A stretch of DNA of 64,000 nt. Source: a virus. The first letter of the stretch is position 1. Each line of letters starts with the position of its first letter. This document shows, piece by piece, positions 2,322 through 52,869 of this stretch. Below the pieces are notes generated by a model. The model was given only the letters and a program-made list of their open reading frames with translations. It was not told where the DNA came from and searched no databases. Where the stretch lies: the IMG/VR virus record IMGVR_UViG_3300032093_000017; one strand, given 5' to 3'. The position numbers and the translations under genes were made by a program.

Positions 2322-3312
2322 AGATATTGTAAAAGAAATTGGAGGTGAATATACGCAACTTGCATCTGATATTGATGAGACTGAAACTTATGTTGAAACA
2401 GGTTCATACATTTTTAATGCACTGGTTTCAGGTAGCATATTTGGTGGTGTATCTGGGAATAAGATTACTGCTATTGCTGGAGAATCTTCTACTGGAAAGA
2501 CTTTCTTCTCTCTCGCTGTGGTTAAGAATTTTCTTGATAATCACCCCGATGGTTATTGTCTCTACTTTGATACTGAAGCTGCTGTAAGTAAATCCTTACT
2601 TCAAGGTCGTGGTCTTGACATTAACCGAATTGTAGTCGTTAATGTAGTCACAATTGAAGAGTTTAGAAGCAAAGCATTAAAGGCAGTTGATTTGTATCTG
2701 AAAAAGAAGGAAGGAGAACGCAAACCTTGTATGTTTGTTTTGGATTCTCTGGGAATGCTTTCTACTGAAAAAGAGATTGAAGATGCATTGAATGATAAAC
2801 AAGTTAGAGATATGACTAAATCCCAACTTGTAAAAGGTGCATTCCGAATGCTTACTCTTAAACTTGGACAGGCAAAAATTCCTATGATTGTGACCAATCA
2901 CACTTATGATGTTGTGGGTTCTTATGTTCCTATGAAAGAAATGAGTGGTGGTTCTGGTCTTAAATATGCAGCATCTTCTATTATCTATCTTTCTAAGAAA
3001 AAAGAAAAGGATGGAACAGAAGTTGTTGGTAATATCATCAAATGTAAGACACAAAAGTCTCGTTTGAGTAAAGAAAATAAAGAAGTGGAGGTGCGTTTGT
3101 ATTATGATGAACGTGGTCTTGATAAGTATTATGGTCTTCTTGATCTTGCTGAAAAGTATGAAATCTTTAAGAAGGTGGGAACTCGTTATGATATTGGAGA
3201 TGGTACAACTCAATTTGGAAAAACTATTAATGAAAATCCAGAGAAGTACTTCACGCCAGAAATAATGCAGGCATTAGATGAAGCAGCAAAAAAAGAATTT
3301 TCTTATGGGTGA
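2308..3312 (+). CDS. uvsX: RecA-like recombinase UvsX
   Basis: Walker [27 protein letters not shown]. Confidence 0.95.
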
Positions 3313-5900: not shown

Positions 5901-7043
5901 ATGGCAATTATTAATAGTAGTGGATACAAATTACTAAATGCCACAACAGTAATTAATATTTTAAAATCTAGTGCGGTTCAAAATCAAAATTATCCTCATG
6001 TAAGGTCTAGATTTTATGATTTAAAGAGAACAAGTGATAGTAAAATTTTATTAACTGTGAAGTCTCAGTATTCTTCTAATTTGGAAAGAATATATGATGA
6101 TATAACTAAATTATTTTCTACTGACGTTTTATTAAATGGAAAAAGTATTTTTGTTACTGGAAGACAATCCAATGTTTTGGGTGTAGATTTTATATTAACT
6201 TTACAAAAAGCAACCTCTAAATTTGAAATATTTTTTAAAAGTCAAAAATCAATAAAACCAAAAGTTCCAGAATTATTAAGGCCAGGTATTTTGAATGAAG
6301 AATATTTTGTTTCAAAAATTAATGATCAGGTAAAAAAAATTAATGAGGCAAAAAATACGATTGCTTTGCCAAATTTATTTGACCCGAATTTGAATTTAGT
6401 TTTATATGAAAATAATCAGCAAAAATATACAATAAATGGAATAAAATCAATTGAGAGGGTTGGACAACTTTTAGGGAAAGAGGATGTTTCAATTAAAACT
6501 AAAAATAATAAAAAAATTAAAATTTCTTTAAAAAAGGAAAATTTTTCTTTTTGGGGAAGTGCGAGTCAATATTCTGCAGCAAATGATATTTTGGATTATC
6601 TGATAAAATCTAATTTGATTTCAGTGTCAAATTCTTCCGGAAGGGGGGTTTTGACTGATATTTCTACTGGAAAACCATTAATTGGCATTAGATTAAAAGC
6701 AACAATTGGAGAAATTAAAAAATATTGTTTTGGTGAAGGTATGAATAAAGTTGATTATATTTTAATACAATCATTTAATGTTGGAGATTTCAGGGATATT
6801 AGAAAAGTTGGAGGTGGTCAAGATTATAAGTTGGAACTAAATTCTTCAATAATATATAAAGAGACTTCAAATGACATAATAAGAATGAGAGATAATGTTT
6901 ATTTGACAATTGTTCCTAGTTCTAGCAATTCTTCTGCCTTGATGCCAAATTATCCTGGATTTAGAATACAATTTGCCACTAAAGGAGCATCAAAGGGTTA
7001 TTATGAACCATCACTTGCTAATATTTCGTTAGGAAGATTGTAA
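5901..7043 (+). CDS. Hypothetical protein, putative PD-(D/E)xK nuclease
   Basis: E..F, KEDVSI...ISLKK pattern; AT-rich. Confidence 0.5.
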   Translation: MAIINSSGYKLLNATTVINILKSSAVQNQNYPHVRSRFYDLKRTSDSKILLTVKSQYSSNLERIYDDITKLFSTDVLLNGKSIFVTGRQSNVLGVDFILTLQKATSKFEIFFKSQKSIKPKVPELLRPGILNEEYFVSKINDQVKKINEAKNTIALPNLFDPNLNLVLYENNQQKYTINGIKSIERVGQLLGKEDVSIKTKNNKKIKISLKKENFSFWGSASQYSAANDILDYLIKSNLISVSNSSGRGVLTDISTGKPLIGIRLKATIGEIKKYCFGEGMNKVDYILIQSFNVGDFRDIRKVGGGQDYKLELNSSIIYKETSNDIIRMRDNVYLTIVPSSSNSSALMPNYPGFRIQFATKGASKGYYEPSLANISLGRL

Positions 7044-7070
7044 TTATAAATATTTAAAAAACAAGTAATA

Positions 7071-8270
7071 ATGAAGAGTTTTACTCAATTTGTAAGAGAA
7101 GCAGTAGAAACCCTTGCATCTACCGAAGCAAAAAATCGTGGTCTTGTTGGAAACGGACACGGTGATTGGTATGATAAGCAAGGAAATTTTGTTGCGAAAA
7201 CAGTAAACGGAAAATTAAAGTTTTTTGGTCAAGGTGATACCACATCTCAAGACGGAATACCCGGAGAAGAAACAAAAAAACAAAGTAGTGCAACTCAAGC
7301 AGCACCACAACCATCTACAACAGAAAAACTACCAGCAGAACAAACTGCAAATGGAATTGTAGTAGTTTTAGGGAGATTTAACCCCCCATCCAAAAATCAC
7401 GAACAATTATTAAAAGCAGGATTTAATAATGCAAAAAGAATGGGATATGAGTATAGAATATATCCAAGTAGAATCCAAGATGGTCAATCAAATCCATTAA
7501 GTCCAAAAACAAAAATTTCTCTTATGAGAATGATGTTTAAAAAATATTCTGAATATATTGTTGATAGTGAAGAAACTAGAACTGTTTTTGATTCTTTAGT
7601 CTCAATTTATAATGATGGATATACTGATGTTACTATTGTGGTTGGGCAAGACAGATTGGGAGAATTTCAAAGTTTAGTTCATAAGGGAGAGGGTCAAGAC
7701 TATCAGTTTAATAATATTCAAGTTATATCTGCTGGAATTAAAGACCCTGATGGTGAAATTGAAGACCCTGGTTCTTCTGCAAAAATGAGAACATCTGCAG
7801 CAGTAGGAGATTATGCTGGATTTGTTCAGGGAATTCCTTCTGGAATAAGTCAGGCAGACAAAGAAAAAATATTTAATATGGTTTCAAAATCTATGAATGT
7901 AACTGAAGACACAGAAGTTTGGAGAATTGTTCCTGAACTTGATTATGATGGATTGAGGTGGAATTATAAGAACAATGGACTTTTTGAAGTTGGTACATTT
8001 GTGGAAAGTTTGAGTAGTGGTCTTATTGGAAAAATATTCCGCAGAGGTTCTAATTACTTGATTTGTGTAACTGAAGATGGAAAGATGTTTAAAAATTGGT
8101 TGAAAGATGTTCGTGAAGTTTATGAAGTTGGAACTTGTAATTACAGAAAGCACACACAGGAAATGACACCTAAAGAACCTGTGGTTTCTTTTACTGATGT
8201 TGAAGTTAAAGAAACTATGCCAAAGAAAACGATAAATATCAATAGGAAAAAATTATCTACAAAAAGATGA
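7071..8270 (+). CDS. Cytidylyltransferase-like (HIGH superfamily) protein with capsid-targeting-like N-terminus
   Basis: GRFNPP..NH, VVGQDR, SSAKMR; starts MKSFTQFVRE; TATAAATA at 7045-7052. Confidence 0.8.
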   Translation: MKSFTQFVREAVETLASTEAKNRGLVGNGHGDWYDKQGNFVAKTVNGKLKFFGQGDTTSQDGIPGEETKKQSSATQAAPQPSTTEKLPAEQTANGIVVVLGRFNPPSKNHEQLLKAGFNNAKRMGYEYRIYPSRIQDGQSNPLSPKTKISLMRMMFKKYSEYIVDSEETRTVFDSLVSIYNDGYTDVTIVVGQDRLGEFQSLVHKGEGQDYQFNNIQVISAGIKDPDGEIEDPGSSAKMRTSAAVGDYAGFVQGIPSGISQADKEKIFNMVSKSMNVTEDTEVWRIVPELDYDGLRWNYKNNGLFEVGTFVESLSSGLIGKIFRRGSNYLICVTEDGKMFKNWLKDVREVYEVGTCNYRKHTQEMTPKEPVVSFTDVEVKETMPKKTININRKKLSTKR

Positions 8271-9658
8271 AAGATTGGGCAGAGATTATTTCTGAAGCAA
8301 AAGATAAAAATAAAGAAAAAGCAGAAAGGCAAAGAAGACTTAAAATTGCTAAGACTGCATTGAAGGGTTCTGCTCTTTTGGATAAAGGGAAAACTGGAAA
8401 AAAGGAAGATAAAAAAGATTCTAGATATTTGGATTATCTTGAGCGTCGTCAAGCAACAAGAGAACAAGAAATTGAAAAGCAAAGAGGACAGGAAGAAGAA
8501 AAGAAAAAGCAAAAATTAATGAGAATAAAAGAAAAAAATCTTGAAAAATCAAAAGAAAGAATCAAGTCAGCAATTGGTGGTGTAAAAACTGATACGATTG
8601 GTTCCAAAGAAGGTGGGGCAACTGCCACAATGAAAGCACTTGGCAATTTAGGTTCTCTTGCAGGTGGATTGGCAAAAGCAGCAATTCATACTCCTGGTTA
8701 TTTAAAAGCAAAAGGAGAATATAAAAAAGCAAAGGAAACTAAAGTCACCTCAAATCAACCAGAAAAAGCAAGAGAAAGAAAAAAACCAGGAAGACCAAAA
8801 AGACCTCCAGTTTCATTATCAACTCAACAATCTTCATCAAGTCCAGAACAAAAAAGACCTGTTCCTGCAACTAAGAGACTTGTTCCTGCTACCAAGAGAC
8901 TTCCATCATCTGGTGGTGTTCCTGAGGGGTCAAGAGGTCCAAAAGCAATGACTTTGGGGCAGAGGGCAAGACAAAATCCAAAAATCAAAGCAGGACTTAT
9001 TGCCCAAAGAAATGAAGAATATTCAAATTGGAGAGAAGAATTCTTGTTTGAAGTTGATGAATTAAAGAATGAAAAAACTGCAAAGACAAAAAACAAAAAA
9101 GATAAGATTGATGTGATGAAGGGCACTAACTCAAAATTTATTGAGATTAATCCAAATATTTCTGAGGACCATAAGGAAATTGCCAGTGGTAAGAAAAAAG
9201 ATGATGAAGGTTATATGGCAAATGTTGAATTGGACCAAATGGAAAGAGCAATCAAAGCACTTCGCAAAAAGATAAAAAAAGCAGATATGCAAATGCCTGC
9301 TTGGGTTCAATCAAAAATTACTAGAGCAGCAGATTATATTGATACTGCTTCCGAATATCTCCAAAGTGATGAAGGTCTTTCTGAATCTGTTGATAAAGAT
9401 GCAATGAAGTGCAACAAACCAAAATCACAAGCACACGGGTCTGGTGAAACTGGAAAGTCACATATTGTAAAGGCTTGTGAAGGTGGAACAGAAAAAATTA
9501 TTCGTTTTGGGCAACTTGGTGTAAAAGGTTCTCCAAAAAAAGAAGGTGAGTCTGAGGCATATGCAAGTCGTCGTCATAGATTCCAAACAAGACACGCAAA
9601 GAATATTTCTAAAGGAAAAATGTCTGCTGCTTATTGGGCAAATAAAGTTAAGTGGTGA
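8267..9658 (+). CDS. Modular basic hypothetical protein (probable virion-internal protein)
   Basis: Lys-rich; modules AWVQSKITRAADYI and IRFGQ...SAAYWANKVKW; short KRxVPAT repeat. Confidence 0.7.
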   Translation: MKDWAEIISEAKDKNKEKAERQRRLKIAKTALKGSALLDKGKTGKKEDKKDSRYLDYLERRQATREQEIEKQRGQEEEKKKQKLMRIKEKNLEKSKERIKSAIGGVKTDTIGSKEGGATATMKALGNLGSLAGGLAKAAIHTPGYLKAKGEYKKAKETKVTSNQPEKARERKKPGRPKRPPVSLSTQQSSSSPEQKRPVPATKRLVPATKRLPSSGGVPEGSRGPKAMTLGQRARQNPKIKAGLIAQRNEEYSNWREEFLFEVDELKNEKTAKTKNKKDKIDVMKGTNSKFIEINPNISEDHKEIASGKKKDDEGYMANVELDQMERAIKALRKKIKKADMQMPAWVQSKITRAADYIDTASEYLQSDEGLSESVDKDAMKCNKPKSQAHGSGETGKSHIVKACEGGTEKIIRFGQLGVKGSPKKEGESEAYASRRHRFQTRHAKNISKGKMSAAYWANKVKW

Positions 9659-9707
9659 TTGATGACTAGTTTGAGATAAATAAAATTGAACCTAATAAGA
9701 GGGGATT

Positions 9708-9881
9708 ATGGGAGTAGTAGTTGCATTGGTAAAACCACTCATTCTTCAAATTGCTACACATCCAGAAGTTAAGAAACTTGTAATTGAACTTCTTGAGAAA
9801 TATGTAAAAACAACCGATAACACAATTGATGATATGGTTGTTGTGTTAGTTAAAGAAAAACTCTTTACTCCACAAAAATGA
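9708..9881 (+). CDS. Hypothetical protein (57 aa, ...TDNTIDD...)
   Basis: RBS gagggg, ATAAATA upstream; read by eye. Confidence 0.65.
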   Translation: MGVVVALVKPLILQIATHPEVKKLVIELLEKYVKTTDNTIDDMVVVLVKEKLFTPQK

Positions 9882-10042
9882 TAACTTGTTTTATAACAAA
9901 TTGGGGAGTAACTATTATTTTAGGTTTATTGTTGACTGCATCTGAGTGGTTAGCAAAAACAAAAAAATTTGAAGAAAATGGATTACTAGATTTAACTACT
10001 AACTTTTTAAAAATAATTTTACGCAAAGAAGACAAAAAATAA
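9878..10042 (+). CDS. Small membrane protein (54 aa)
   Basis: ATGA overlap; one hydrophobic helix; read by eye. Confidence 0.55.
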   Translation: MITCFITNWGVTIILGLLLTASEWLAKTKKFEENGLLDLTTNFLKIILRKEDKK

Positions 10043-10096
10043 AGGTCTTCTTTTTTTATAAATATCAGTATAAGAAAAACTTACGGAAAAAAAGAC

Positions 10097-10984
10097 ATGG
10101 CACTTTGGGGTAAGGCAGACGGTGTATTTTCACCAGGAACAGTTACTGTCAACTATACAAATAAAACAATTACTGGTGCTGGAACATCATTTAGAGCAGT
10201 AGGTGTCACTACTGGTGCAGTAATTACCATCGGTGCTGGAGGAACTTTTGGAAATGCGGTAATTTCTGGAATTACTTCGGAGACTCAAATTTCAATTGCA
10301 ACAACTCAGTATCTGAGTGGTGCTGCTATTGCTGGAATTGCATATTCAATATCTCAAAAACCAGTTTATACTTTAGAAGATACAAACTTTGCTACTATAA
10401 CTGGAACTGGCAATTCTGCATCAACTAATAGAGTATATGGTGTTGATGAGTTTGAGCAAACTGCTGCTACCGAAAGTGGTTCAAAATATGCTGCGGCACA
10501 CGCAGGTTGGGTGGGAGTTCATACATATATTGATTGTGAGAATCAACTGAGAGTTAAGACCGAAGTGTTGGTTGCAATGTCTGGAATTAGCACATCTGCA
10601 CTCGCAACATATTCAGCAACTGGTGATGCTGCTGATGATGCAGTATATGCAGACAATTACATTACGATTAGTGCTCAACCATCAAATAGAGTTGGAATTG
10701 CTACAACCGTTGCAACCACATTCGCAGTTACTGCAGCAGCAAATGATTCTGAAGCACTTTCTTATCAGTGGCAGTTCTCAACTGCTGTTGGAGCAGCATT
10801 TACCAATGTTACTACTGGATTGCTTGGTGGTCTTATTTACACCAACCCAACTACAGCAACTCTTGGTATTGCGGCAACAACTACAACTGCCAACAGACCT
10901 AATGGTTACTACTATAGAGTTAACATTACTACTGCTGCTGGTGCTGCGAAGACTTCCGATACAGCAAGACTTACTTATGCGTAA
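10097..10984 (+). CDS. Virion structural protein with C-terminal Ig-like domain
   Basis: TATAAATA at 10057-10064; T/A/G-rich; ITISAQP...LSYQWQ...YYYRV. Confidence 0.75.
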   Translation: MALWGKADGVFSPGTVTVNYTNKTITGAGTSFRAVGVTTGAVITIGAGGTFGNAVISGITSETQISIATTQYLSGAAIAGIAYSISQKPVYTLEDTNFATITGTGNSASTNRVYGVDEFEQTAATESGSKYAAAHAGWVGVHTYIDCENQLRVKTEVLVAMSGISTSALATYSATGDAADDAVYADNYITISAQPSNRVGIATTVATTFAVTAAANDSEALSYQWQFSTAVGAAFTNVTTGLLGGLIYTNPTTATLGIAATTTTANRPNGYYYRVNITTAAGAAKTSDTARLTYA

Positions 10985-10991
10985 TTGATAT

Positions 10992-11363
10992 ATGAGATTT
11001 GATGAGTTGAATGAAGATAATTATTTAATGTTTGCAATTAAACATTATGATAATCCACAATCAATGACCCAAGATGATTTTTATGAAGATCTGAAAAGAT
11101 TTAATTGGATTAATAGATTATTGAAAAAATATAAATCATCTGGGTCATTAAATATTCATTTGTTAATTAATCATTTTATAATTCTTTATAATGTATTTGG
11201 AGATGCTACAACTCCTTTATTGTTTTATAAAGTGGATAGTCAATTTTGGAGTATCATTAAAACTTTTATTGTTTATTTGGGAAGACTTCCAGAATACCCA
11301 AAGACTGATATCCATAGCATACCAGTAGATATAGATTTTTTAAAACAATTAAATGTGATCTAA
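10992..11363 (+). CDS. Conserved T4-like hypothetical protein
   Basis: FAIKHYDNP...LINHFIILYNVFG. Confidence 0.8.
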   Translation: MRFDELNEDNYLMFAIKHYDNPQSMTQDDFYEDLKRFNWINRLLKKYKSSGSLNIHLLINHFIILYNVFGDATTPLLFYKVDSQFWSIIKTFIVYLGRLPEYPKTDIHSIPVDIDFLKQLNVI

Positions 11364-50465: not shown

Positions 50466-50574
50466 GGTTTAGTCCCCGAAAGGGGACTTTTTTATGACTT
50501 GACACCAGAACCAGACCGTAGTATGATAAATAGGTAAACAAATGTTAAGGATTCCTCATAATTCTTAACATTGT

Positions 50575-50690
50575 CAAACACCCGTTAACCGAGACCTATG
50601 GGTGTATAAGAACGTCTCTCATACCCACAATGGAGGGTGTTGTGGGATATACTGTAACCATCCAGTTCCCCCTGGACTTTTACTTACCCT
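50575..50690 (+). ncRNA. PhotoRC-II-like structured psbA leader
   Basis: gagac/gtctc pairing; cccacaa-tggagggtg-ttgtggg hairpin directly 5' of a phage psbA. Confidence 0.65.
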
Positions 50691-50700
50691 TTTAAAACAA

Positions 50701-52260
50701 ATGACTGCTTCAATCGCTTCACGCCGTTCTGGCGAAAATACCTGGGAACAATTTTGTAACTGGGTGACTTCAACCGATAACCGTCTTTATGTCGGGTGGT
50801 TTGGTGTTTTGATGATTCCAACGCTGCTTACTGCTGCTACTTGTTTCATTATCGCATTCATTGGTGCTCCTCCTGTGGACATTGATGGTATTCGTGAACC
50901 CGTTGCTGGTTCTCTAATGTACGGAAACAACATCATCTCTGGTGCCGTTGTTCCTTCGTCCAATGCAATTGGACTGCACTTTTATCCCATCTGGGAAGCT
51001 GCTTCCCTAGATGAGTGGCTTTACAACGGTGGACCTTTCCAACTTGTTGTCTTCCACTTCCTCATCGGCATCTATTGCTATATGGGTCGTGAATGGGAAC
51101 TCTCTTACCGTCTAGGTATGCGTCCTTGGATTATGGTTGCTTACAGTGCTCCTGTTGCTGCTGCGAGTGCAGTTTTCCTGGTCTATCCTTTCGGTCAAGG
51201 TTCTTTCTCTGATGCAATGCCTCTGGGTATTTCTGGTACGTTCAACTATATGCTTGTGTTCCAGGCAGAGCACAACATCCTGATGCACCCCTTCCATATG
51301 CTTGGAGTTGCTGGTGTGTTCGGTGGTTCTCTGTTCAGTGCAATGCACGGTTCTCTGGTTACTTCCTCGCTGGTTCGTGAAACCACTGAGAATGAGTCTC
51401 AGAACTACGGTTATAAGTTCGGCCAAGAAGAAGAGACTTATAACATCGTTGCTGCTCACGGTTATTTCGGTCGTCTTATTTTCCAATATGCGTCCTTTAA
51501 TAACTCCCGTTCACTGCACTTCTTCCTTGCTGCCTGGCCCGTTGTAGGCATCTGGTTCACTGCTCTTGGTGTGAGCACTATGGCTTTTAACCTCAATCGT
51601 CGGGGTCCCGTCCTAGCAATTTGACGGTAAACATCGGGTGAACTGCTGGAAGCCCTCCACAAATGGGTAATCAGCATCCAAGTCCAAAGTACACTTTGGA
51701 AAGGTTCAGAGACTACCTGAGGAGTTCAGTCTCCTTAATAACAGGAATAAGTGCCCGACATCCTAAACGGATGAAGATATAGTCCACTCCTTAAAGATGG
51801 TAAATTTAAGGGTTCAGTGTAACGGTTTCAACTTTAACCAATCTATCGTAGATAGTCAGGGTAAAGTTATTAATACTTGGGCAGATGTGCTCAATCGTGC
51901 AGGACTCGGAATGGAGGTAATGCACGAACGGAACGCTAGATTTGTTGGTGTTCTTGCTTAGGAATAAGCATTAGTAAAATCGGGTTAAACGGGGAAACTC
52001 TCTATGAGACAATCCCGTACCAAGTCAGAAAGGGTTTAAGTTTTCTGAAAGGTCTAACGACTAGGTGGTGAGTCCCAACAATAATCCACCCACGAATGCC
52101 CGACATCCAGAACGGATGAAGAGATAGTCTGAACTTACTAGTGATAGTAAGAAGTAGAGGATAAAGAACCACTACGATAACAAAATTGCACAACTTCCCA
52201 CTTGACCTTGCTGCCGCAGAAGCAACTCCTGTTGCTCTTACTGCACCTGCAATCGGTTGA
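50701..52260 (+). CDS. psbA: Photosystem II D1; exons 50701-51593, 51820-51937 and 52189-52260 (360 aa spliced)
   Basis: Joined exons restore [12 protein letters not shown] and [14 protein letters not shown]. Confidence 0.95.
51594..51819 (+). mobile_element. Group I intron 1 (226 nt, no ORF)
   Basis: 5' exon ends in U with P1 acctc/ggggt U-G pair; R gttcagagacta, S gaagatatagtcc; terminal G. Confidence 0.92.
51938..52188 (+). mobile_element. Group I intron 2 (251 nt, no ORF)
   Basis: P1 gaacgct/ggtgttc; R ctaacgacta, S gaagagatagtct; terminal G. Confidence 0.92.
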
Positions 52261-52269
52261 TAAAATTGG

Positions 52270-52294
52270 AGACCCTTTACGGGTCTCTTTTTTT
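52270..52294 (+). terminator. psbA terminator
   Basis: gagaccc/gggtctc followed by a T run. Confidence 0.85.
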
Positions 52295-52347
52295 GTGCTA
52301 TAATGGAGTTTAAGATTTTATAAATAGTTAAAAGATTAAACACCATA

Positions 52348-52869
52348 ATGAGAACCACGAAGATTTGTAGAACCTGCACACAAGAACTTCCTATCTCTGA
52401 TTTTAGAGAAGGTCGTAGAAGGTGTTTAAGATGTGAGGAAAAAACTTATGCTGAAAACTGGGCAAGTAAAACTCACATTACTTGCAACAAGTGTGGTGTA
52501 GAAAAATTGATTTCTGAATATTACAAAGGGCACAAAAGGTGCAAGGAATGTTATAGTAAAGACTATAAGGATAAGAAACCTTCCTTTGATGATAAGAAGG
52601 ACTATATGTTGAAATATACTTATGGAGAAGATTTTGGACTAGACGAATATAAAAAACTCCTTCAGGAACAAAATGAAGTTTGTGCTATTTGCTTTAATCC
52701 AAATACCAATGGTAGAAAAGATAGTAATAGTCTTTATGTGGACCACGACCATAATACTGGTAAAGTTCGTGGATTGCTTTGTAGCAACTGTAATAGAATG
52801 CTTGGTCTAGTTGGTGATAATTTAAATACATTAAGTAGTGCAGTTAAATATCTACAAAAGCACCAATAA
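52348..52869 (+). mobile_element. Free-standing Endonuclease VII-family homing endonuclease (F-CphI-like)
   Basis: CAIC...VDHDH..GKVRGLLCSNCN..LG; two N-terminal CxxC/CxxC modules; TATAAATA at 52319-52326. Confidence 0.88.

Follow-up and report, generated by a model that had tools for sequence, protein, structure and literature searches.

The psbA Locus

The window analyzed here, meaning the whole 64-kb stretch of viral DNA, belongs to a T4-like cyanophage and contains psbA, which among the auxiliary metabolic genes of cyanophages is the best known and routinely serves as a marker of their diversity. The gene lies on the plus strand as three exons separated by two insertions. Exon 1 (50701..51593), assigned by translation and by identity to the D1 protein of S-PM2, encodes D1 residues 1–297 plus two nucleotides of a Leu codon (Leu297 in standard numbering). 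Exon 2 (51820..51937, 118 nt) runs from the third base of this codon to Ala336, and exon 3 (52189..52260) from His337 to the C terminus, stop codon included; both were assigned by exon joining. When the three exons are joined, an intact D1 of 360 aa results, in which the AFNL/NGF and ERNA/HNF sequences are restored. The window D1 possesses one additional N-terminal residue, its own codons 298 and 337|338 being standard L297 and A336|H337. The protein segment encoded by exon 1 shares 92.6% identity with D1 of S-PM2, and exon 1 is 82–86% identical to its counterparts in S-RSM4, Syn30, and S-RIM8.

Several putative expression signals flank the gene. A sigma-70-like promoter (TTGACA-17-TATGAT; 50499..50527, +) is proposed from its consensus match (11/12 positions), and the psbA 5′ UTR contains a PhotoRC-II RNA motif (50566..50660, +) that was recognized by Rfam model RF01717 (81.7 bits; gathering score 39). 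On the 3′ side, a hairpin followed by a T run (52268..52295, +) resembles an intrinsic terminator and is overlapped by a promoter-like site (52276-52304), after which comes a late-type box, TATAAATA (52319-52326).

A free-standing gene (52348..52869, +) for an EndoVII-type homing endonuclease of 173 aa, a relative of F-CphI, begins 88 nt beyond the stop codon of psbA and was identified by its match to the Endonuclease_7 family (Pfam PF02945, E 5.4e-22). The spacer between psbA and the nuclease gene (52264-52347) is 92–98% conserved among otherwise diverged loci with the same nuclease, and its hairpin could terminate transcription in both directions. A further promoter-like site, on the minus strand at 52400-52428, lies inside the start of the nuclease gene and could yield an antisense RNA like CfrI of S-PM2.

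Identification of Two Group I Introns

The sequence-only reading had called two group I introns in psbA and named covariance models as a check. A search of the 64-kb window with Rfam model RF00028 (gathering score 50 bits) returned exactly two group I matches, at 51584-51811 (77.9 bits, E 4.5e-18) and 51928-52151 (67.2 bits, E 7.2e-15), each spanning the full model (positions 1-253). Intron 1 (51594..51819, +, 226 nt) is an ORF-less member of the S-PM2-like psbA intron family and occupies the L297 site, while intron 2 (51938..52188, +, 251 nt), also without an ORF, belongs to a separate lineage and is located at A336|H337. The junctions read AACCT|CAATCG...CAGTG|TAACGG for intron 1 and AACGCT|AGATTT...AATTG|CACAAC for intron 2; in each case the 5′ exon has a U at position -1 and the intron terminates in G. 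These junctions, the two insertion sites, and the length of the middle exon had been read exactly from the letters, and the U-G P1 helices, P3/P7 cores, and terminal G residues described there are likewise present in both introns. Other in-frame boundaries (AACCTC|...|AACGG and AACGC|...|GCACAAC) would also keep the protein but break the U(-1)/terminal-G rule and were rejected.

The predicted secondary structures contain the expected exon-recognition elements. In the P1 helix of intron 1, ACCU|C pairs with GGGGU (51602-51606), which places a U·G pair at the splice site, the whole helix being invariant in the L297-site homologues; in intron 2, GAACGCU pairs with GGUGUUC (51947-51953), again with a U·G pair that is invariant in homologues. 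The P7 strands are GACUA/UAGUC in both introns and map around 51711-51716 and 51780-51784 in intron 1. P10 is weak in intron 1 (~3 bp) and amounts to ~4 bp in intron 2 (ACAA/UUGU).

Comparative analysis lends support to these foldings. An alignment of 17 L297-site homologues from IMG/VR showed double compensatory changes at 17 of 60 predicted pairs of intron 1, and RNAalifold, which cannot draw the P3/P7 pseudoknot, recovered P1, P2, P3, P4, P5, P6, P8, and P9 from these 17 sequences. For intron 2, seven sequences were available, with double compensatory changes at 8 of 70 predicted pairs. Compensation was also observed between exon and guide in the P1 helix of intron 2 at one locus (L138), where a G-C pair is replaced by A-U through a synonymous exon change (CGG to AGA) and a C-to-U change in the guide. 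Metagenome contigs were scanned for copies that carry both window junction sequences, whether doubly spliced or lacking the introns, and none matched.

Indirect Evidence for Splicing

Read without splicing, the psbA frame forms an ORF at 50602-51624 that stops eight codons into intron 1, in keeping with the premature end of D1 predicted by the sequence-only reading, and a D1 made from the unspliced message would miss the C-terminal ligands of the Mn cluster. The sequences 3′ of the L297 intron were compared with those of 18 distinct alleles. All 18 are open, with a full-length C-terminal frame, and their codon differences from the window comprise 372 synonymous and 118 nonsynonymous changes. 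A 13-residue segment of D1 containing Mn ligands is unchanged in every allele, and a 16-residue segment at exon 3 is identical in 17 of the 18, the remaining allele reading EVLHERNAHN. Exon 2 likewise differs from its homologues mainly by synonymous changes. The exons 3′ of the introns are under purifying selection, and because the alleles are open, synonymous changes are in excess, and the ligand segment is invariant, the psbA exons are evidently translated. Translation of the exons 3′ of the L297 intron in turn requires splicing.

The insertions are almost certainly genuine group I introns that are spliced, presumably also in vivo. That they are decayed, non-splicing remnants and psbA a pseudogene is scarcely credible: decay of this kind is at odds with two full-length Rfam matches, with compensatory changes in the helices, and with downstream exons that are intact and under purifying selection.

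Relationship between the Two Introns

A segment of 33 nt is nearly the same in both introns, 30 of 33 positions being identical between 51752-51784 and 52097-52129. The sequence-only reading had noticed this similarity around P3′-P8-P7′ correctly and had taken it as a sign of common ancestry or transposition. A derivation of intron 2 from intron 1 by transposition within psbA, or the reverse, with the core as its trace, would explain the 30/33 identity and could draw further on the observation that P8 is short in the window-type copies of intron 2, as it is in intron 1, but longer in other homologues of intron 2; this short P8 could reflect local conversion between co-resident introns. We nevertheless consider such a derivation very improbable. 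The global identity of the two introns is only ~62%, and blastn aligns nothing beyond the 33-nt core, whether intron 2 is compared with intron 1 or with the homologues of intron 1. Matches to the Rfam consensus and to introns of Streptococcus and Clostridium phages indicate that the shared segment is the P3′-P8-P7′ catalytic core, conserved across the whole class.

Phylogenetic analysis leads to the same assessment. When 79 distinct short introns of psbA were placed in a tree, they clustered strongly by insertion site (11 label changes, against a minimum of 9 and a mean of 42 after shuffling). Intron 1 falls into the L297-site clade within an S-PM2-like superfamily, while intron 2 is found on a long separate branch together with other A336|H337 introns of 251-259 nt. 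The relationship assumed by the sequence-only reading is therefore not borne out by the separate clades, the overall identity, and the class-wide nature of the shared segment.

Intron 1 is homologous to the psbA intron of S-PM2 and S-RSM88 (79.2% identity over 159 nt, E 1e-29). That intron is inserted at CGT|AAT, between R334 and N335 (R334|N335), so the L297 site does differ from the S-PM2 site, as the sequence-only reading had held: intron 1 lies 112 nt upstream of it, inside the Leu297 codon, and intron 2 lies 6 nt downstream of it. A search of the isolate phage collection with intron 2 gave no cyanophage match and retrieved core-only matches to introns of Gram-positive phages (Streptococcus, Clostridium). 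The data show a single family of ribozymes that has been retargeted to many positions in psbA; at every psbA intron site surveyed, the guide sequence matches its own exon.

Several further relationships were observed among these introns. The L297-site introns exist in two versions that differ only between P7 and P3′ (ACCTGAGG... versus AGGTGGTT...; columns 137-172 of the L297-site intron alignment, window 51716-51750), and the AGGTGGTT version resembles the corresponding module of intron 2 and of the 3′ intron of S-SRM01. This resemblance suggests recombination between intron lineages. A second lineage at A336|H337, with introns of 209-211 nt, is unrelated to the 251-259-nt type and groups with the L297-site clade in the tree; it was found at loci L008, L010, L071, L113, L128, L243, and L250.

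Similar sequences also occur in phages of other hosts. The P3-P5 region of intron 2 (window 51986-52018) has an exact 33-nt match in 12 records of phiKZ-like Pseudomonas phages; in OMKO1, the match (1501-1533) lies inside an ORF-containing gap that splits thymidylate synthase into thyA_1 and thyA_2; this gap presumably represents a group I intron. The core of intron 1 (window 51633-51747) resembles an unannotated region of the human-gut crAss-like phage cr116_1 (MT774389, 21773-21891; 81.5% identity over 115 nt), probably a related group I intron. An exact 24-nt core motif of the S-PM2 family gave 0 matches in 185,579 prokaryote species genomes.

The Downstream EndoVII-Type Nuclease

The psbA intron of S-PM2 and the free-standing endonuclease F-CphI constitute a case of collaborative homing. 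The nuclease of the window shares 46% identity with F-CphI of S-PM2 and conserves the equivalents of D101, H102, R110, and N118, residues that are essential in F-CphI (PMC6083498). It also possesses an additional N-terminal CxxC...CxxC zinc-finger module that is absent from F-CphI.

Co-occurrence with intron sites was examined at 73 unique loci. The L297 site is split in 15 of the 16 loci with a window-type nuclease and in 9 of the 57 others (Fisher p 1e-8), and the same picture emerged from loci gathered via the nuclease itself. F-CphI-type nucleases show a different preference, as they accompany the R334|N335 intron in 29 of 30 loci and the L297 intron in only 2 of 30. Among 70 assessable psbA loci from a less biased sample, the L297 intron was present in both nuclease-bearing loci (2/2) and in none of the other 68. 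When kinship was taken into account through independent pairs on the exon-1 tree, intron at L297 and nuclease agreed in ~4.6 pairs and disagreed in none (p about 0.06), and the same test gave no association of the nuclease with 3′ introns.

At the sole nuclease locus with an intact L297 site (L100/L248), AAT TTG AAT takes the place of the usual AAC CTN AAY. Nine close psbA relatives, among them L278, L281, L289, L291, L292, L295, L314, and L317, have a more distant EndoVII-type gene after psbA and lack introns both at L297 and at the 3′ sites.

The correlative evidence inclines us, by a modest measure, to a nuclease, of predicted activity and cleavage site, that is partnered with intron 1, with intron 2 carried along. 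Alternatively, the nuclease may act like F-CphI itself and cut within R334-H337, in which case intron 2 would be the protective partner and intron 1 would be linked by descent or co-conversion. Homology to F-CphI, the same place after psbA, and the conserved catalytic residues are consistent with such a target, as is an intron at R334|N335 or A336|H337 in 11 of the 16 nuclease loci. The main support comes from the five nuclease loci that have no 3′ intron (L234, L244, L245, L247, and L257), all of which are recoded in this region: psbA codons 333-340 carry synonymous variants, with an AGR codon for Arg334 and CAT AAT TTT in place of the usual CGT...CAC AAC TTC. This recoding at the F-CphI-type site may be an escape from nuclease cutting there.

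However, the 3′ state of the 16 loci is heterogeneous, with no intron in five, the R334|N335 intron in three, a long A336|H337 intron in five, and a short A336|H337 intron in three, whereas the L297 intron is nearly constant. The kin-controlled association with 3′ introns is absent, the additional zinc-finger module hints at an altered target, and the long A336|H337 introns are as frequent without the nuclease (5/10). Taken together, we regard cleavage within R334-H337 as rather doubtful.

A more specific version of the partnership with intron 1 can be formulated. The two-zinc-finger nuclease could be a retargeted paralogue of F-CphI whose target in intron-less psbA is the Leu297 codon, located ~280 bp away from the nuclease gene. 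Repair of the cut would then copy a cassette of ~1.3 kb that extends from intron 1 through the nuclease gene and thus includes exons 2 and 3 and, as an unrelated hitchhiker, intron 2. We put this forward tentatively, as a conjecture that is somewhat less likely than not.

Probable Mobility and Possible Regulation

The distribution of sequence differences around the introns is mosaic. Relative to locus L233, the window differs at 85 positions in exon 1 (~9.5%) and at a single nucleotide across the 755 nt that begin ~15 nt ahead of intron 1 and end in the intergenic region. The position of this near-identity block is only circumstantial evidence for nuclease cleavage of an intron-less allele at the insertion site of intron 1. 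Against L240, identity reaches 99% in both introns but drops to 80% in the exon 2 that separates them. This mosaicism is consistent with mobility. On the exon tree, the presence of introns switches at least 11 times. The best interpretation of the introns is that they are mobile selfish elements, and it is to selfish mobility that their patchy distribution points first.

One could also suppose that the introns are kept chiefly as a regulatory device, with two light- or redox-sensitive splicing steps that gate D1 synthesis during infection. Gating as such, put forward by the sequence-only reading, is plausible by analogy with the psbA intron of S-PM2, whose splicing responds to light intensity; the psbA introns of Chlamydomonas likewise splice light-dependently (PMC5931967), and functional D1 cannot be encoded by the unspliced RNA. 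Maintenance of this kind seems unlikely, given that neither intron is present in 64 of 70 assessable close psbA relatives, that presence changes as often as noted above, and that the introns move between diverged exon backgrounds, a pattern typical of selfish mobile elements. The introns may nonetheless have a regulatory side effect beside selfish mobility.

The explanation as a whole, which we hold to be very probably correct, thus involves two independent ORF-less introns of the self-splicing type that are mobile, intron 1 probably having spread with the downstream nuclease. Each intron would recognize its own 5′ exon through its guide sequence, forming P1 with a U·G wobble at the splice site, and both would have to be removed for D1 to be made, because the unspliced message stops within intron 1. 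Intron 1 would be an S-PM2-family ribozyme retargeted to the Leu297 codon, and intron 2 a member of another lineage, inserted just downstream of the classical S-PM2 site. The nuclease most likely spreads together with intron 1, as F-CphI does with the S-PM2 intron in collaborative homing, and exon 2, intron 2, and exon 3 would be carried along within the converted block.

Prevalence of Multi-Intron psbA

The sequence-only reading had considered a phage psbA with two introns, one of them at L297, to be unusual and had proposed a survey of intron positions. Two scans of IMG/VR with intron motifs retrieved at least 118 loci each, and D1 exons were mapped on 148 loci, yielding ~24 provisional insertion sites, an approximate figure since sites 320/321/324 and 1010/1011 are probably single sites blurred by mapping. 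Among the matches listed for these mapped loci, R334|N335 is occupied in 55 loci, L297 in 14, and A336|H337 in 16. Up to five introns were resolved per psbA gene. The pair found in the window (L297 plus A336|H337) recurs in L096/L233 and L050 and, together with a third intron, in L012/L051, L140, and L242. At another locus (L032, IMGVR_UViG_3300042987_001812), D1 exon fragments are spread over 4.6 kb (6653-11257), which suggests at least six introns in that psbA, some junctions being left ambiguous by the mapping.

These loci were collected mainly via intron motifs, and the counts are biased accordingly. In a less biased sample, the 80 closest relatives of exon 1, of which 70 were assessable, most genes have neither intron, and the L297 intron occurs in 2 of the 70. 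The two-intron arrangement is a minority state, yet a recurrent one. The claim of unusualness consequently stands in comparison with published isolates only; in IMG/VR, L297 and A336|H337 are each occupied in more than 12 loci, the exact pair is found in several, and genes with three to five or more introns exist. The L297 site is distinct from that of S-PM2 but is not rare in IMG/VR.

Full-text literature searches found no description of a multi-intron phage psbA, although this absence is no proof that none has been published. The literature searched mentions, for phage psbA, only the 212-nt insertion of the S-PM2 type, at one site, and HEG-bearing introns in S-CBWM1 and S-SRM01 (PMC5083919, PMC5931967, PMC8557907). 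Even among isolates, however, the window is not alone: psbA of S-SRM01 (MW015081) contains three group I introns (1103-2000, 2487-2695, and 2948-3154), located at H92|F93, with an HNH nuclease ORF inside, at A250|A251, and at R334|N335. The S-SRM01 paper discusses the first of these introns only (PMC8557907), and the GenBank record annotates psbA merely as D1 fragments. H92|F93 is the same position as site 276, an established intron site of chloroplast psbA in Chlorophyceae (PMC2997540).

Comparison with Known Systems

The closest parallel is S-PM2, whose psbA, like that of S-RSM88, is interrupted toward its 3′ end by a group I intron that contains no ORF. The window and S-PM2 also share an EndoVII-family nuclease gene directly after psbA, a PhotoRC-type 5′ UTR, and the gene order psbA-nuclease-psbD. 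They differ in that the window has two introns instead of one, neither at R334|N335; its S-PM2-like ribozyme sits in the Leu297 codon and has a different guide sequence; and its nuclease, with the extra N-terminal zinc-finger module, tracks the L297 intron and not a 3′ intron. The freshwater Synechococcus phage isolate S-SRM01 resembles the window in that its psbA has several introns, one of S-PM2-like sequence at a site other than that of S-PM2, and is followed by an F-CphI-type nuclease, but none of its three introns is at L297 or A336|H337.

Green-algal chloroplasts offer a second comparison, with several group I introns in one psbA and reports of light-responsive splicing (PMC5931967, PMC2997540). 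Four such introns are known in Chlamydomonas reinhardtii, and those of Floydiella occupy sites 276, 333, 414, and 790 (PMC5931967, PMC2997540). Many of these organelle introns carry ORFs, unlike those of the window, and the sites listed for Floydiella, the only algal site list compared, do not match the window sites (standard nt 890 and 1008).

The T4-type introns (td, nrdB, and sunY; subgroup IA) are also small phage introns in conserved metabolic genes with nuclease-dependent mobility, and the window introns share with them extra helices between P7 and P3′ in the Rfam alignment, assignment to subgroup IA being tentative. The introns of T4 mostly encode their own endonuclease, in contrast to the window introns, which contain no ORF and are accompanied by a free-standing nuclease. 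Overall, the window system is of the same kind as the S-PM2 intron with F-CphI and is set apart from it by the number of introns, both insertion sites, the lineage to which intron 2 belongs, the nuclease architecture, and the apparent partner of the nuclease.

Implications

The window psbA is a variant of a known system, because multi-intron phage psbA is recurrent in environmental viral DNA; taken alone, it is a clean example that represents a modest gain and no new mechanism. The broader picture from public viral contigs is that of a family of small ribozymes retargeted to about two dozen provisional sites in psbA, with at least two types of nuclease that track different sites. Psb​A PCR and annotation pipelines will overlook multi-intron genes of this kind or break them into pieces, as happened with S-SRM01. 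For the phages, the supply of D1 during infection can hinge on several splicing events, and the retargeted introns and nucleases form a natural set for studying how homing specificity evolves. Should the cassette described above prove real, a single nuclease would disseminate two distinct introns by a form of collaborative homing that acts at a distance, and homing of such cassettes would account for psbA as an intron hot spot of cyanophages.
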